Source: a phage. From it: DNA of 64,000 nt. Every line of letters starts with the position of its first letter. Positions within the stretch are counted from its first letter, which is position 1. The position numbers and the translations under genes were made by a program. This document shows positions 2,487 through 45,831 of this stretch, in pieces. A model generated the notes under the pieces. The model was not told where the DNA came from, made no database searches, and saw only the letters and a program-made list of their open reading frames with translations. The DNA lies in the NCBI GenBank assembly GCA_020241125.1, contig GCA_020241125.1_4708.1. One strand, written 5' to 3'.

Positions 2487-2517
2487 GATTGAAATCTCGC
2501 TGGCTTACTTCACTTAA

Positions 2518-2534
2518 GTAATATAGCCGTGAAA
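2518..2534 (-). promoter_or_regulatory. candidate phage early promoter (minus-strand TTTCACGGCTATATTAC)
   Basis: Exact 17-mer repeated at 15116-15132; contains TATATTAC; 32 nt upstream of the start at 2486. Confidence 0.45.
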
Positions 2535-4802: not shown

Positions 4803-6029
4803 CTACTTCGTTTTCGCCGTTATCGGCTGCGATACTGTAATCTCGACCCGATCGACATCGGTACGTTTAACGATGATAAGGCTGCGTTCATCACCGAATG
4901 GTTCTGAGATCTTACAAGCCTCTTTAAGATTTTCGAGAATCGTGCCATGGGGTTCAAACACCGCAAAACCGGAACTAGCGTCGATTCTTATTAAATATAC
5001 ACGCACATTGTTTACGGTAATGGTGTCATCCGTCTTGAACCCACAGCAGGAGGGTAGACAGAACTGACCATTAACGCAATTAGCTAAGTATGCCTCACCA
5101 CCGAACATTTCTATTAACGTCACCGGTTTAAATGTTTTCTCTGGGAAAGCATTATTAAGAATATCGTTTCCATTCACAAACCAGATCGTTACTTTATCTT
5201 CGGAATACGCTAGTCTGTATGGTTGGGTTGCGGACGCCTGCGCTTTATGCTGGTTAAATAACTTTGATTTTGTCGCAATCACAGCACGACCTTGGGCGTC
5301 AAAGTACAGAACTTCATACCCAACACATCCGATAAACACGCGACGGTTATTAAGTTCCGGAATTCTGACTACTAACGCATTACCATCTTCCGTCGGTGTA
5401 ATACCACGTAGGATGATAGATTCGTTGTTCAATGTTGAGTTGCTCACGATGACGCTTCGCATTACCGCTGGCGACACTATTTCATCTGCTGCAGGTTCAA
5501 GTTGCTCCGCTGTTACAGTCACGGATCTGTCTTCCTTTTCAACTGGCCAGTTGAAAAGGATTGTTTTATTAAGACAAACAATTGGGGTAATTTCGCCGAT
5601 ACTCCGTATCTTGACTGAGGGGCAATTGCACACATACGGAACAAAAACATCAATATCGTTGGTCGCTTCTTCAAGCATGCTAGCATACGCCATTGCTTCG
5701 GGACGATCGGTGAGATGAATAACAGCATAGACGATATCGTCTTTTAACCACGCACGTTTCACTCGTCCTATAACACGATTGATGTCTACAATAACTCTCT
5801 GAGCTTTCATCTCCCATTTTACTGCATCAGTACCACCCGCAACCACGTTCGGTTTATCCGTGTTTACACGATGAAGGAAACTATTGATTATTTCCTCATC
5901 GATCTGGATATCCTTTCTCGCAAAATTCAACAACGGAATAACGAACTCATTGTTACCGCACTTCTCTGCTCCGCGAATGATAGGAGTACACTTCTTGTTC
6001 TCATCTGATCCCCAGATAACTTTAGTCAT
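4803..6029 (-). CDS. hypothetical protein (408 aa)
   Basis: ORF 4803-6056 begins with GTG; ATG 6029 has AAGGAAA RBS; N-terminus MTKVIWGSDENKK; no phosphoesterase motifs seen. Confidence 0.65.
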   Translation of the reverse strand: MTKVIWGSDENKKCTPIIRGAEKCGNNEFVIPLLNFARKDIQIDEEIINSFLHRVNTDKPNVVAGGTDAVKWEMKAQRVIVDINRVIGRVKRAWLKDDIVYAVIHLTDRPEAMAYASMLEEATNDIDVFVPYVCNCPSVKIRSIGEITPIVCLNKTILFNWPVEKEDRSVTVTAEQLEPAADEIVSPAVMRSVIVSNSTLNNESIILRGITPTEDGNALVVRIPELNNRRVFIGCVGYEVLYFDAQGRAVIATKSKLFNQHKAQASATQPYRLAYSEDKVTIWFVNGNDILNNAFPEKTFKPVTLIEMFGGEAYLANCVNGQFCLPSCCGFKTDDTITVNNVRVYLIRIDASSGFAVFEPHGTILENLKEACKISEPFGDERSLIIVKRTDVDRVEITVSQPITAKTK

Positions 6030-6062
6030 TTTCTGTTTCCTTCTTGGGTTTTGCACAAGTTT

Positions 6063-11743: not shown

Positions 11744-12106
11744 TTAAAGCGTTCTGAAGAGTTCTGTAGCGTTCTCGTCACGTAGGCAGGCTTCGTTCAA
11801 CAATTCAGCTAACAGCTTCGACCGAACTTCAACAAATGTCCTGAGGCGATGCTCCCATTCTAAACGGATAGTGTACGTATTATCCAGGTTTTTGTAATCA
11901 ACGACAGATGTAGAACAACGGGCCTCGCGTTTGTTCACAGCACTCCAAACATCACGGATAACCGTCACGCCTTTCTTGGTACACGTAAACGTTAAAATAA
12001 AGCGATTATTCGCAGCTTCTTCACGGACGCCAACAAATTCACTTCGCAACGATGAGACTTTGATCAGTCGGTCAATAGCTAACGATAAACCGATACGTTG
12101 TTGCAT
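11744..12106 (-). CDS. hypothetical protein (120 aa)
   Basis: ATG 12106 with AAGGA RBS; part of a leftward cluster of small genes. Confidence 0.55.
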   Translation of the reverse strand: MQQRIGLSLAIDRLIKVSSLRSEFVGVREEAANNRFILTFTCTKKGVTVIRDVWSAVNKREARCSTSVVDYKNLDNTYTIRLEWEHRLRTFVEVRSKLLAELLNEACLRDENATELFRTL

Positions 12107-12107
12107 A

Positions 12108-12533
12108 TCAAATTCCTTCTTTCAGAATCTCATTAAGACCGTCAGTAATCCAGTCGAACTTCGTCTTAATCATGGCTGGGTTCAATCCATATACTTCCCA
12201 CACAAGCTGGGGTTTATGTGTTCCATCGTCCAAACAAAGCACATCGATTGAGAGTACCATACCACCCGTCAATTTCATGTTCTCGCAACTACGAAGATAT
12301 GCGGATTCTAGCAATACTTTCCCTAACGCAGTGCAAGCAAATGTTAACCGGGAAGAGTACAGGTACGATGACGTTTTACAGTAGGTTGCTGATATCGGTT
12401 GAATATGTTTGCGGAGTTTGGCGTCTTCACGTAAAAGCAATAACGTGTGATGTAACCGCGTATGCTCGGTAACCGATGAGCTATACTCACAGATACACTC
12501 TTCGGCGACTGATTTAGGCCATTTAATTTTCAT
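12108..12533 (-). CDS. hypothetical protein (141 aa), weak paralog of 12549-12992
   Basis: ATG 12533 with GAGGA RBS; N-terminus MKIKWPKSVAEE resembles MEIKFCKSIAIV of the upstream gene. Confidence 0.55.
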   Translation of the reverse strand: MKIKWPKSVAEECICEYSSSVTEHTRLHHTLLLLREDAKLRKHIQPISATYCKTSSYLYSSRLTFACTALGKVLLESAYLRSCENMKLTGGMVLSIDVLCLDDGTHKPQLVWEVYGLNPAMIKTKFDWITDGLNEILKEGI

Positions 12534-12548
12534 GTTCGATTCCTCGTA

Positions 12549-12992
12549 TTAACACTGTGTTCCATTCGATAAGCGGGTGGTATCAAAACGATCCAGTTGG
12601 TGTACAATGCTATCAGCAACACGATGCAAATAGTGTATTTTGTCCATTCGTGAAATCGCAGAAATCGTCCAGCAAGCCTCTGACGTCCAATAGGTGCCGT
12701 CTTCACTAAGGCTAACGTTATAAACTAACTTCGTCATCACATTTCTCGCCTTATGCTCAGCAGACCAGAATATGTTTTCTAACACATCCTTCCCCGTTTG
12801 TGAAAACACGAACCCAAGCTTCACGTCGAAGTCGGATGCTTCAAGATTAACGCAGTGAAGATGATTCTCTAACGGCGCAAAAGAGGCTAAACGTTCCAGC
12901 GCATGTTGCAGTGTGGGATGATCGAGCTTTTCGAGATCATCCGCAGGTTGTTCAGGTACAATCGCGATCGATTTACAGAATTTAATTTCCAT
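12549..12992 (-). CDS. hypothetical protein (147 aa)
   Basis: ATG 12992 with AGAGGA RBS. Confidence 0.6.
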   Translation of the reverse strand: MEIKFCKSIAIVPEQPADDLEKLDHPTLQHALERLASFAPLENHLHCVNLEASDFDVKLGFVFSQTGKDVLENIFWSAEHKARNVMTKLVYNVSLSEDGTYWTSEACWTISAISRMDKIHYLHRVADSIVHQLDRFDTTRLSNGTQC

Positions 12993-13104
12993 GGTAGGTT
13001 CCTCTTGATAGTGGTTGATGATAGTAACGGGGACGGCGATGTCCCCTTGGTTTCTTATTGCCCCGCCCGAACCCGATGGGGTACAGGCGGGTGATGTTGA
13101 TGCG

Positions 13105-13512
13105 TTATAGCGGCATCAGACGTTCTTTAAGTTGGGTTAACTTATTTGCAACGATGTTCTCAACGTCGATCATCTTGTTCATGTTGTCGAGGGTATCCTG
13201 CCAGATGAAAATATCCACGGAACCGGTTCCGACTAACGCGTTCTCAGGACGATGGTCACGGGTCACGTAGCGTGGTCTCTGCGGGCAGGTTTGTAACTCG
13301 ATCCAAAGCGCATCTAACGGACCACGGTCCGTGACACCTAAGGCGAAGAATTCACCTCGTACGACCAGAACATCATCAGCCGTCCTGACACGGGTTGATC
13401 CTTCGTACACCAATTCCATCTTTGCTCGACAGGCTGGGTTCTCGTTCCACGCCTGGACGGCATCGGCAAGGGCTATTGACGTTGCGGTGGTGTTCGTTTG
13501 ATCATGTTGCAT
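13105..13512 (-). CDS. hypothetical protein (135 aa)
   Basis: Intact ORF with ATG 13512. Confidence 0.55.
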   Translation of the reverse strand: MQHDQTNTTATSIALADAVQAWNENPACRAKMELVYEGSTRVRTADDVLVVRGEFFALGVTDRGPLDALWIELQTCPQRPRYVTRDHRPENALVGTGSVDIFIWQDTLDNMNKMIDVENIVANKLTQLKERLMPL

Positions 13513-13589
13513 TCTAAGCTCCTGTAACGCTCTCTAAGCGTCGTTTTAAGTTAAGGTATAGTTTCCCTTCTTTGGATTCGTTTATTGCG

Positions 13590-13865
13590 TTATACGGCTT
13601 TTCTGTGCGCGTAGAACGCCTTCGTTCCGTTGTTGATTGCTTCAACCACATCCCGGGTTAACACAACGGCGTTATCGCTTCGAGACGACGGTGCGTAATA
13701 CCCTTCACCGTTCTCGGTAATCAGGCGATAACGGACTAAGCCTATGCTCGGTTCAACACGTAGCACCTTCTCAAGTTTGTATTTGATGATCTTCGTCAGG
13801 CTAACCGTGTCTGACACGTAGATCGCTTTATAAACTTTGTTCTTTGCTGTGGGTTTCATCAACAT
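13590..13865 (-). CDS. hypothetical protein (91 aa)
   Basis: Intact ORF with ATG 13865. Confidence 0.5.
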   Translation of the reverse strand: MLMKPTAKNKVYKAIYVSDTVSLTKIIKYKLEKVLRVEPSIGLVRYRLITENGEGYYAPSSRSDNAVVLTRDVVEAINNGTKAFYAHRKAV

Positions 13866-13905
13866 GATTTCTGTTGTATTTTCCTTTTCGCTTGTTGGTG
13901 TTGGA

Positions 13906-14205
13906 TTAATGTTTAGGTTCCGTTTTGTGTTGTGCGAGTAATGTGTTGATCTGCTCCCGTTGTTCTTTTAAGCATGCAGGAAGCTGGTCTTCCCGTACCG
14001 TTCCGATTTCCAACGTGATGTACCAACGTTGTTCGGAAGCCTGCCATTGAAAACTGCTCTGTAACCTCAGGATGCTAGGATCACGTACCTTGCTTGCACT
14101 GTAACGGTTGAACCAATCCAGGTATGCTGCTTTCCCTTCCTCGTCAGCGATGTAACGCTGCACGCTGTTCTTCCCTTTGTTCTCGTATCCCGTTGCACGT
14201 ATCAT
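13906..14205 (-). CDS. hypothetical protein (about 100 aa)
   Basis: ORF 13906-14259; ATG 14205 overlaps the stop of the upstream gene as ATGA. Confidence 0.5.
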   Translation of the reverse strand: MIRATGYENKGKNSVQRYIADEEGKAAYLDWFNRYSASKVRDPSILRLQSSFQWQASEQRWYITLEIGTVREDQLPACLKEQREQINTLLAQHKTEPKH

Positions 14206-14984
14206 GCGAACGTTTCTCCTGTAATGTGTTGCGGATGGCGTAGCATGGTAGCATCCCATTGTACGATCTGGCTTCGGCTTACCCGCATCATGATGGATTC
14301 GTCATCAAGCCCCTGTTGCGCAACCGGCAACCAACGTTCCCCAAGCACCTTCGCTTCAACACGTTTCTTGCGTGGGTTGTAACGCACCTCGCTAACCCAA
14401 GCGAATCCAAGCGGATGGACTACCCGTGGATAAAACATGCGAAGCAATTGATGCATCCGATCCGTTGCCTCCAATTTGCCATCCACCATGTAAGGTTTCA
14501 CCATGGTAAGCTTTTTGGTGTAATACGTTCCAACGGTATGGTTACGCCAACTTGGCAAGGCATGATCCCCTTCTCTCAGTTTGCTATCCGAGTTCATTGA
14601 CCAGACCTGCTGTTTACCGGCCAGCATCGCGTACTGCCGATCAACGCAACGAACCCGATCGGCGAACAATGGATCCAGGACATCATCCACCGCGCCCTTA
14701 TTGCGATAACCGTGATGTACCACCAACCTGCTTGCGCTCATCGATGCGGGATGCTGGCTCTTATGCGCATACAGCCCTCCGTCACCGCGAGCGTCGTAAA
14801 GATAACCGCATGCGCCACGCCATATCACCTTGCCTACGGTTCTCTCGTCTTCAAGCAGCATCGTCGGCCCATCAAGCAAATTGGTGAACCACTGCACCTT
14901 CACGCATTCCGCTTGGACATGCTCAGGTAATGCCTGATACTCTTTTTGGGTGTATAAGGTATCAAAAATGATTTCTTCGTTCAT
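14202..14984 (-). CDS. hypothetical protein (260 aa), first gene of a leftward unit
   Basis: ATG 14984; promoter-like motifs at 15065-15078 and 15116-15132 lie upstream on the minus strand. Confidence 0.65.
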   Translation of the reverse strand: MNEEIIFDTLYTQKEYQALPEHVQAECVKVQWFTNLLDGPTMLLEDERTVGKVIWRGACGYLYDARGDGGLYAHKSQHPASMSASRLVVHHGYRNKGAVDDVLDPLFADRVRCVDRQYAMLAGKQQVWSMNSDSKLREGDHALPSWRNHTVGTYYTKKLTMVKPYMVDGKLEATDRMHQLLRMFYPRVVHPLGFAWVSEVRYNPRKKRVEAKVLGERWLPVAQQGLDDESIMMRVSRSQIVQWDATMLRHPQHITGETFA

Positions 14985-15064
14985 TTAAAAAGTTCCTCTG
15001 TTTCACGTTAATTAAACAACGTATTGATTTCTATTTGACAGAATACGAACATCGTACGTATCTA

Positions 15065-15078
15065 TCACTTAGGTAACG
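15065..15078 (-). promoter_or_regulatory. TTACCTARGTGA motif, degenerate copy
   Basis: TCACTTAGGTAACG resembles the exact 16-mer found at 43272-43287 and 51447-51462. Confidence 0.3.
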
Positions 15079-15115
15079 CTTACGCGTCGCGTTCATGATA
15101 CCATGCATCATGAAG

Positions 15116-15132
15116 GTAATATAGCCGTGAAA
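15116..15132 (-). promoter_or_regulatory. candidate phage early promoter, second exact copy
   Basis: Identical 17-mer GTAATATAGCCGTGAAA (plus strand) upstream of the leftward small-gene cluster. Confidence 0.45.
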
Positions 15133-15367
15133 GGATTTGTGTTAACGCAAGGGTTTTGTTTGTTTTTTAAGAAGGGATGGATTTAGAAGAGGTGTTTCAA
15201 GGAAGGTAAACGAGAATAGGTATTTTGATTTAAGTAAGATGTTATCTGTATCCGTTAGAAGTGTATTGTCTAAGTTATCTTGTTTATCTTAGGTTTAATC
15301 GTTTTTATCTTGGTATGTTTAAGTTGTTTTTATTTAACTGTTAAAATGCTTATCTTCAAAACAATGG

Positions 15368-15422
15368 ATAACATGTGTTTACTACGCTCGTTGAGTTATA
15401 ACTCAACGGTAACACATGTCAT
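15368..15422. repeat. nested palindrome
   Basis: Perfect 20-bp palindrome CGTTGAGTTATAACTCAACG (15389-15408) flanked by inverted arms AACATGTGTT and AACACATGT. Confidence 0.6.
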
Positions 15423-15811
15423 CTGTGCATTACACTACGTTACATGCTAGTTAAATCGGATAACTCAAAAAAACATTTGTGATACTCTTCTTCACGTTGT
15501 TCATCAGAGTATCTCGTCTATACTCATTGCATTCGTATACGACATAACCGTTACACGCTAACGCTACGCTTATAGCTTGATAACTCTAAGGATAAAAACA
15601 TAAACTCGCTTCGCTCGTTTAGTTTTTCTTTTTCTTAGAGTTATCCTGTTGCTCGTCTCTAAAGGACTTCGCTCCTCCCCCGTCCCCCGAAGGGGCCGAG
15701 GTCGTGGAAATTTTACTTTCCAAATACATTTACAACATCTGTAAACTTTTACTCCAGGTACTTAATCTTATCATTAGAAATTATAAAAGAGAAAATAAAC
15801 ACAAACATAAA

Positions 15812-15846
15812 CCTTCCCCCGACCCGTAAGGGAAGGAGGAAGGGAG
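15812..15846 (-). terminator. conserved hairpin, family copy 3
   Basis: CCTTCCCCCGACCC-GTAA-GGGAAGGAGGAAGGG, 9 nt 3' of the stop of 15855-16748. Confidence 0.65.
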
Positions 15847-15854
15847 AGATTAAA

Positions 15855-16748
15855 TTATTCGGAAACGTTATAACCGAATACTGCTTTACCGTAGGTGTGA
15901 GTACCGTCAGCTAACGACAGCACCAACACATGGTTGTATGTAGCGTTAACGCCTTTATCGGTAGACCCGGTGGTAGCACCGTTATAGACAAAGGTAGCTG
16001 TTTGCAGATTGGTTTTCAGTTCATTGATGATATCATCACTTACACCAGTCTGTTCTTTAATCAGGGTGGTCAGGTTACCCGCTAAGCCTGCATCGATCTT
16101 GGTATCGTTACTGGTAATAGCTTGTAAACCTGCGGTGTAAGTACTGAAGTCTAACGGATAGGTTAACAGACGTGCTGAGGTCTTGGTACCATCGCCTTCA
16201 TCAACGTAGGTTAAGTTACCCAGATTGGTAACCTTGATGATGTTAGCCAGATCCAGCGTGGTGTTATAAACTTTAACTTGAACAGAGCCATACCACGCCA
16301 ACGAATCTTCTTTGGCTTCCAGGGTGATCGTCTGGATACCATGCTGGTCGAAGGTAACCGGCGTAGCTAACGTTTCGGCTTTGATGTCTTTCGCTTTATC
16401 CAGGAACTTCTCACCGGAAGGCGTGATCATACCGTAGCGTTGAGCTACAAGGTCAACCACATCACCGATGGTGGTGTTCGCCTCAACGTTAACACGTACA
16501 GCGATCTTCTGGAACCACTTAGCCAGATCCAGACGATGGTAGGTGACATCTCGGTTATTGAAGTAAGGGGTACCTTCACCAGGACTAAGTGTTAAAGTTG
16601 CTTCTGGAGCAGAAGGATTCTTTTCTTTAAGGACGTATTTAAGGTCGGTATATTTAAAGCTGGCACCAGTGTCAGCGTTAAGCTGGTTGATCTCATCAAC
16701 GATAAGTTGCCAAGGTGTTTTTAAAGTAAGCGATACTTGAGCAGTCAT
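15855..16748 (-). CDS. abundant (codon-optimised) protein, member of a six-gene paralog family
   Basis: ORF 15855-17024; ATG 16748 with GAGGAA RBS; strong host-like codon bias; motifs YHRLDLAKWF and LAWYGSV shared with 27809-31428 genes; followed by conserved hairpin 15812-15846. Confidence 0.8.
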   Translation of the reverse strand: MTAQVSLTLKTPWQLIVDEINQLNADTGASFKYTDLKYVLKEKNPSAPEATLTLSPGEGTPYFNNRDVTYHRLDLAKWFQKIAVRVNVEANTTIGDVVDLVAQRYGMITPSGEKFLDKAKDIKAETLATPVTFDQHGIQTITLEAKEDSLAWYGSVQVKVYNTTLDLANIIKVTNLGNLTYVDEGDGTKTSARLLTYPLDFSTYTAGLQAITSNDTKIDAGLAGNLTTLIKEQTGVSDDIINELKTNLQTATFVYNGATTGSTDKGVNATYNHVLVLSLADGTHTYGKAVFGYNVSE

Positions 16749-16887
16749 TTTCTTCCTCGATAGTTGGTACATCACTCTCAAAAGATGTAAGTGTTTACAG
16801 AAATTAATATATTTTATATTAAATGTGAATATTATGGAGAACGACTCCGAATCTCCTTTTCGACCATCAAAATCAGAGGACACGAAC

Positions 16888-45682: not shown

Positions 45683-45831
45683 TGAAAGTATCCTTTACAG
45701 AATTAACTTATATAAGTCGGTCGATAGACCATAGCGTACACGCGTGCATGCGCCACTATAGTATCAGTAAACACTTACCGTTATTGAGGTCGTGATACAA
45801 CACTAAAAATGCCGCATAACTTTTCCCTACG

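Follow-up and report, generated by a model that had tools for sequence, protein, structure and literature searches.

A young palindrome within an older, dispensable minus-strand hairpin at a late-to-early gene boundary of Goslar-like jumbo phages

A perfect 20-bp palindrome in an ORF-free gap of a 64,000-nt stretch of phage DNA (GenBank assembly GCA_020241125.1, contig GCA_020241125.1_4708.1; hereafter the window) is a recent acquisition and not an ancient functional site. From comparison of related sequences we suggest, with a probability of roughly 55%, that the nested repeat to which it belongs is an old and dispensable RNA hairpin of the minus strand that has received a young insertion in its loop, and that this hairpin resembles an accessory intrinsic terminator or insulator. 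The palindrome is an ordinary feature, a lineage-specific embellishment of that hairpin with nothing new in kind. The conserved non-coding core next to it and two recurrent motifs, one of early and one probably of late control, are more interesting than the palindrome.

The window aligns collinearly with the 237-kb genome of E. coli phage vB_EcoM_Goslar, a nucleus-forming jumbo phage of the Chimalliviridae, at an identity of ~96-97% over most of its length and ~90% at 14.9-21 kb. Searches of a phage collection, distant mode included, matched the region to Goslar alone; complete E. coli genomes and plasmids gave no match to the region, and GTDB representative genomes yielded no relatives of gp022. 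The hairpin lies in an 870-bp gap (14985-15854) flanked by a gp021-like gene of the early operon (14202-14984, minus strand) and a late gp022-like virion protein gene (15855-16748, minus strand). The counterpart gap in Goslar measures 854 bp and is the largest ORF-free stretch of that genome; the second largest (82470-83288, 819 bp) adjoins a DNA polymerase fragment, gp068, and the NUMOD1/HNH gene gp069. The first-pass annotation had described the region as free of ORFs, and across 14985-15854 no ORF survives comparison with relatives. We rejected a protein-coding reading of the gap: its ORFs span just 31-56 aa and are broken by indels of the relatives or vary with the hairpin pairing, not with the peptide. 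A sigma-70 promoter scan returned matches at chance level.

The perfect palindrome is a derived insertion

The palindrome, CGTTGAGTTATAACTCAACG, occupies 15389-15408 and is perfect over its 20 bp, just as first reported. The inverted pair reported around it also exists and is longer than had been thought: its arms, GATAACATGTGTT (15367-15379) and AACACATGTCATC (15411-15423), measure 13 bp each and match at 12 of 13 positions by Watson-Crick pairing, and the whole nested feature spans 15367-15423, one base more on either side than previously given. Between the palindrome and the outer arms lie spacers of unequal length, 9 nt and 2 nt. When the 64-kb window was simulated 200 times with a first-order Markov model, a perfect palindrome with arms of at least 10 nt turned up in just 7 runs, and the real window contains three, at 1796-1823 (28 bp), 5533-5560 (28 bp) and 15389-15408. 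The second of these, TCCTTTTCAACTGGCCAGTTGAAAAGGA, is located inside a gp009-like ORF of 417 aa (4803..6056, minus strand), just inside the interval 5510-6036 in which collinear similarity to Goslar is lost; this may be the sign of a recombination breakpoint or of an inserted element.

Secondary-structure prediction had been proposed as a check, and the nested repeat does fold far better than shuffled sequence. As RNA, a 76-nt segment reaches -26.2 kcal/mol on the minus strand and -25.8 kcal/mol on the plus strand, with z-scores of -5.6 and -5.3 and no match among 200 shuffles; as DNA it reaches -14.9 kcal/mol (z -5.0). The palindrome is not an assembly artefact, since it is common to four independent public assemblies, all encoding an identical gp022-like protein, whose identity to the window is 99.93-100% over 5.9 kb.

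We compared the locus in two sets of genomes, one made up of these four near-identical assemblies (at least 99.93% identical to the window) and the other of 11 diverged Goslar-like genomes, namely Goslar, two other IMG/VR contigs and eight metagenome contigs; some 59 Goslar-like genomes have been reported from assemblies of bacteria (doi 10.1101/2024.12.31.630880). MAFFT places a 16-bp lineage-specific insertion, GCTCGTTGAGTTATAA, at 15386-15401, accompanied by a T-to-C change at 15404; at the insertion point the relatives read TACTAC|CTTAACGG. The insertion, which creates the perfect palindrome, was found only in the window and its sub-lineage of at least 99.9% identity. Seven of the 11 diverged genomes (L003, Goslar, L010, L011, L013, L014 and L015) keep the outer hairpin and have none of the central 16 bp, and the other four (L004, L009, L012 and L016) are missing the whole hairpin module. 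The annotation had named absence of the palindrome from close relatives that keep its flanks as the outcome that would refute its reading, and this is the pattern seen in the seven hairpin-bearing relatives, in which the flanking sequence is almost identical. In trees built from gp022, from the right flank and from the hairpin flanks, the window nests among genomes without the insertion, with L014 basal, and the insertion is therefore derived.

The inserted bases are the reverse complement of the adjoining segment 15396-15411 at 13 of 16 positions, and neither the window nor Goslar contains another donor for them. Judging by this sequence match, the most likely source is a replication error, a fold-back or template switch that would have copied neighbouring bases in inverted orientation. 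A single switch event does not yield the exact sequence, as it leaves over the T-to-C change and a central TTATAA. Through the 16-bp insertion, an inner stem of 4 bp with its 5-nt loop gave way to a perfect 10-bp stem, and the predicted folding energy moves from -19.9 kcal/mol in the ancestral form to -26.2 kcal/mol in the form of the window. A more stable hairpin is the sole predictable effect of the insertion.

The palindrome had also been proposed as a binding site for a dimeric protein, and in one version this would be a newly gained operator-like site made of two inverted ATAACTC heptamers, a heptamer characteristic of the region. The dyad symmetry is perfect and 20 bp is a typical size; the arms hold ATAACTC as part of the octamer GATAACTC, of which the 870-bp region contains three of the four copies in the window and three of the nine in Goslar; and the insertion is fixed in five independent samples of the sub-lineage. 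Two of the three regional octamer copies, however, are the two arms of one hairpin. The palindrome is missing from all 11 diverged relatives, and it lies ~260 bp from the early promoter and ~330 bp from the GTAAAAGTTTACAGA motif described below. The further copies for which a genome search had been suggested did not appear: the window holds none beyond chance even with two mismatches allowed, IMG/VR holds none, and 596 Gb of genomes returned one match, at chance level, in a Pedobacter MAG. Being neither conserved nor recurrent nor placed beside a promoter, the palindrome is in our view an improbable protein binding site.

The palindrome shows the de novo rise of perfect palindromes inside existing hairpins. 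It also carries a caution, that a striking dyad without a counterpart in close relatives is not evidence of function.

The outer hairpin and its minus-strand signature

The older hairpin module (15367-15423, minus strand) lies in a variable spacer (15367-15466) between the conserved core and a repeat array, and in form it resembles an intrinsic terminator. Its 13-bp outer stem pairs 15423-15411 with 15379-15367. The module is present in 8 of 12 genomes, and the substitutions in its stem distinguish the two strands. Read as the minus strand, all 104 cells of the outer stem (13 pairs in 8 genomes) can pair, nine of them as G·U, whereas on the plus strand 95 of 104 pair and the same nine cells become A·C mismatches. 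Two substitution events account for the G·U cells, one at an ancestral position and the other an A-to-G change specific to L003, and the strand argument is limited to these two independent events. All changes in the outer stem among the genomes are wobble-compatible.

On the minus strand the hairpin is followed at once, on its 3' side, by a U-rich tract, 5'-CAUUGUUUUG (15357-15366). The minus strand after the stem reads CA-UUGUUUU-G (15366-15357), identically in all eight hairpin-bearing genomes; on the plus strand no T-run follows the hairpin. Taken together, the nine G·U cells that become A·C on the plus strand and the U-tract after the stem point to a conserved signal that acts at the RNA level, on the minus strand, and not as a DNA cruciform or an operator. 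Of the earlier proposal of a hairpin or cruciform, the hairpin is upheld by its folding and by the outer stem kept in 8 of 12 genomes, and the palindrome as a functional cruciform is not.

In its ancestral form the hairpin has an outer stem of 12-13 bp and, inside it, a TACC/GGTA stem of 4 bp capped by a loop of 5 nt, with a predicted energy of -19.9 kcal/mol. It displays three of the four testable features of an intrinsic terminator, namely a stable stem-loop, a 3' U-tract and a position downstream of a transcription unit on the same strand, and it lacks a G+C-rich stem with a loop of 3-8 nt: the outer stem is AT-rich, with 5 G·C among 13 pairs, and the branched interior of the ancestral form measures 15 nt. 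A scan for simple consensus terminators did not call it.

The gap that holds the hairpin is a boundary between late and early transcription. In RNA-seq of Goslar under ChmA knock-down (doi 10.1101/2023.09.20.558163; per-gene values from Sup. Table 2), gp014-gp021 are unaffected (log2FC +0.8 to +1.4), which identifies them as early, vesicle-stage genes, and gp022-gp036 fall (log2FC -3.5 to -6.8), which identifies them as nucleus-dependent late genes. Both units are transcribed from the minus strand, and the gap between them is therefore a late-to-early boundary. The other late-to-early boundaries that we examined in Goslar are far more compact, for example ~135 bp from gp213 to gp214, and the extra ~700 bp in the gap is thus not needed for the boundary as such. 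Goslar-like genomes are highly mosaic in the early operon gp014-gp021 (pairwise identity 0.4-0.6 at 14550-14900 and 11800-14200), and part of gp021 cannot be aligned to Goslar, in contrast to the adjoining conserved core.

On the minus strand, the hairpin follows the gp022-like gene and the conserved core and precedes the early promoter. The gp022-like gene has a terminator of its own, a hairpin with a T-run at 15812-15836 (minus strand) that was called by the terminator scan and belongs to a repeated family (…CCTTCC.CC.ACCC….GGGAAGGAGGAAGGG) whose copies stand at the ends of many genes of the window and of Goslar; sites of the family in the window include 15806-15845 and, for example, 4118, 27778, 48142, 51506 and 62746. 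The nested hairpin comes after both this terminator and the conserved non-coding unit, and could serve as a further block that sets late transcription apart from the early promoter. Transcription termination by the hairpin is putative. The 28-bp palindrome at 1796-1823, CAAGGTCCTCTGATATCAGAGGACCTTG, offers a supporting analogy for the terminator reading: it stands between gp004-like and gp003-like genes, a T-run follows it on the minus strand, and it appears by collinearity to correspond to the terminator annotated in Goslar at 1841-1862, in the gap between gp004 and gp003. Four relatives do without the nested hairpin, which is therefore not essential.

That the hairpin and palindrome have no function at all, the one being neutral, indel-prone filler of a variable spacer and the other a slip of replication, is rather unlikely in our estimation. 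The presence of the module is polymorphic, with 4 of 12 genomes missing it, many indels fall within it, and no part of the locus is less conserved than 15133-15466, at a pairwise identity of 0.42-0.68, all of which would suit neutral filler. Set against this, wherever the module occurs its outer stem and U-tract hardly vary, and both of the changes seen are compatible with wobble pairing on one strand, a weak argument given the few substitutions.

We regard a DNA cruciform within a replication origin or packaging site as a very improbable identity for the hairpin. To our knowledge neither kind of site is known for this phage family, a published review mentions no origin, and the setting has some of the looks of one: the gap is the largest ORF-free gap of the genome, and several hairpins and a single-copy conserved core occur in it together with an AT-rich, indel-prone array of direct TTATC(T) repeats (15230-15366, plus strand, 25.5% GC). 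The five direct copies (15242-15354) have a very short unit, and their number varies among relatives. The absence of the hairpin from 4 of 12 genomes speaks against such a site, as does the strand asymmetry of the stem, which is an RNA signature, and no recognisable initiator gene lies beside the hairpin. The cumulative GC skew of the complete Goslar genome does not switch at the site; its extreme is at ~215 kb, and 15-19 kb shows no more than a shallow local dip.

A conserved non-coding core and recurrent motifs in the gap

Next to the hairpin is a single-copy, nearly invariant core of ~320 bp (15467-15790), a candidate ncRNA or cis-acting DNA element that we assign, by inference, to the minus strand. 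Across eight genomes, 96% of the columns of 15471-15767 are invariant and the pairwise identity is 0.979, making this the best 300-bp window within ±4 kb, where the best coding window reaches 88%. Pairwise distances are 0.003-0.031 in the core versus 0.03-0.18 in gp022. Against Goslar alone the core is unremarkable, as 15% of 320-bp windows are equally conserved, and its constraint becomes apparent only with 8-12 genomes. Goslar contains no second copy. Rfam gave no match at the gathering threshold over the whole window, and noise alone at E<=10 over the region; ARAGORN found no tRNA or tmRNA; and no ORF in the core survives the indels and the hairpin-preserving substitutions of L012.

In the minus-strand sense the strict conservation of the core stops exactly at the T-run 15467-15473. 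This homopolymer varies in length, with A7 in the window and A10 in L022 (GCA_020395325.1), which is at least 99.9% identical, and it varies among relatives as well. The core folds better than shuffled sequence on both strands (minus strand z -4.6, plus strand z -3.4), RNAalifold gives -85.4 kcal/mol for the minus versus -68.5 kcal/mol for the plus strand, and several substitutions are wobble-neutral on the minus strand only. One of 97 pairs has changed on both sides, a value reached by 34 of 500 shuffles, and the core varies too little for covariation to become significant. In L012 (JACXXQ010002411.1), the homologue of 15677-15701 is a GC-rich core hairpin in which the loop and the asymmetric positions are inverted relative to every other genome, so that a UUCG tetraloop is found on the other strand. 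The change has the look of an inverted hairpin loop; it shows that the stem is kept and does not inform the strand.

We tentatively consider the core a minus-strand ncRNA, which is possible and somewhat short of an even chance. Only slightly less probable is that the core acts in cis as DNA, for example as an origin or pac site, for which the whole-genome GC skew gives no support, and the remainder falls to an upstream regulatory region or something else. By a related and equally tentative proposal, the nested hairpin would be the distal terminator of an undescribed minus-strand ncRNA of Goslar-like phages, ~270-370 nt long, starting just downstream of GTAAAAGTTTACAGA at 15738-15752 and ending at the T-run 15467-15473 or at the U-tract of the hairpin. 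Should the core prove to be an ncRNA or an origin or packaging site, no earlier element of its kind would have been defined for this nucleus-forming group.

The motif at this proposed start, GTAAAAGTTTACAGA (15738-15752, minus strand), sits inside the core, contains the dyad GTAAANNTTTAC and recurs elsewhere. In its degenerate form, GTAA[AG][AT]GTTTAC[AT]GA, it occurs in the window at 15738-15752 (-), 16787-16801 (+) and 45764-45778 (-). Goslar has five exact copies of the 15-mer (15703, 16758, 45743, 173084 and 176758) versus 0.0035 expected, and five of the GTAAANNTTTAC dyad versus 0.2-0.3 expected. Copies of the 15-mer stand upstream of chmA, of gp023 and of the major capsid gene, in the last case ~83 nt from the ATG, and we consider the motif a candidate late or middle promoter or regulator site. 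Near-copies of the GTAAAAGTTTAC dyad are present at Goslar 81197-81211, near the second-largest ORF-free stretch and outside the window.

At the other end of the gap, an early promoter motif of the virion RNA polymerase type, TTTCACGGCTATATTACC (15115-15132, minus strand), drives the operon from gp021 to gp014. The general form, TTTCACGGCTATATTAC(C/T)T..GTGA, appears in the window at 15115-15132 (-) and 2517-2534 (-), and in Goslar, always on the minus strand, at 2560, 113790, 142793, 160784, 166062, 172971, 201937 and 226688, upstream of gp004, gp105, gp159, gp175, gp182, chmA, gp214 and gp200. By the RNA-seq data (doi 10.1101/2023.09.20.558163), the genes directly downstream of eight copies (gp004, gp021, gp105, gp159, gp175, gp182, gp200 and gp214) are all of the early class, and those just upstream of the copies are of the late class. 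Early promoters of jumbo phages are linear AT-rich motifs of ~10 nt (PMC7598289), and the Goslar-like motif agrees with this rule. As a by-product, the analysis provides a working map of the Goslar-like late-to-early boundary, with its early motif, terminator family and 15-nt element, together with the conserved core.

Comparison with known systems

With the operators of dimeric repressors in phages and bacteria the palindrome shares a perfect dyad of 20 bp. It is unlike them in being neither conserved nor repeated and in having no adjoining promoter. The hairpin-shaped promoters of the N4 virion RNA polymerase come to mind as well, since here too a DNA hairpin lies in the control region of early genes of a phage that injects its own RNA polymerase; those promoters, however, have stems of 5-7 bp and loops of 3 nt, unlike the hairpin described here. 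The Goslar early motif, TTTCACGGCTATATTAC, is also unlike the N4 hairpin promoters, and its copy at 15115-15132 is ~240 bp away from the hairpin.

The conserved core, ORF-free, structured and single-copy in a nucleus-forming jumbo phage, recalls the non-coding RNAs of phiKZ, which are reported to be expressed. As a candidate RNA it differs from described ones in having no sequence or Rfam similarity to them and in not being antisense.

The insertion has its closest parallel in quasipalindrome mutation by fold-back or template switching, a well-known class. Template-switch mutations in T4 rII and in an E. coli thyA reporter reportedly follow the models of Ripley and Lovett. The palindrome differs from a simple mismatch correction of this kind by its net insertion of 16 bp, its TTATAA centre and its extra substitution. 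Like such mutations, it is a derived change within an imperfect inverted repeat that made the repeat longer and perfect, and its inserted bases complement the adjoining arm at 13 of 16 positions.

The outer hairpin departs from canonical intrinsic terminators in its AT-rich stem and large branched interior, in being optional among relatives and in lying downstream of another, canonical terminator. Like the Rho-independent terminators of E. coli and of its phages, those annotated as putative in Goslar among them, it has a stable stem-loop directly followed by a U-rich tract, and a place between the end of one transcription unit and the next promoter.
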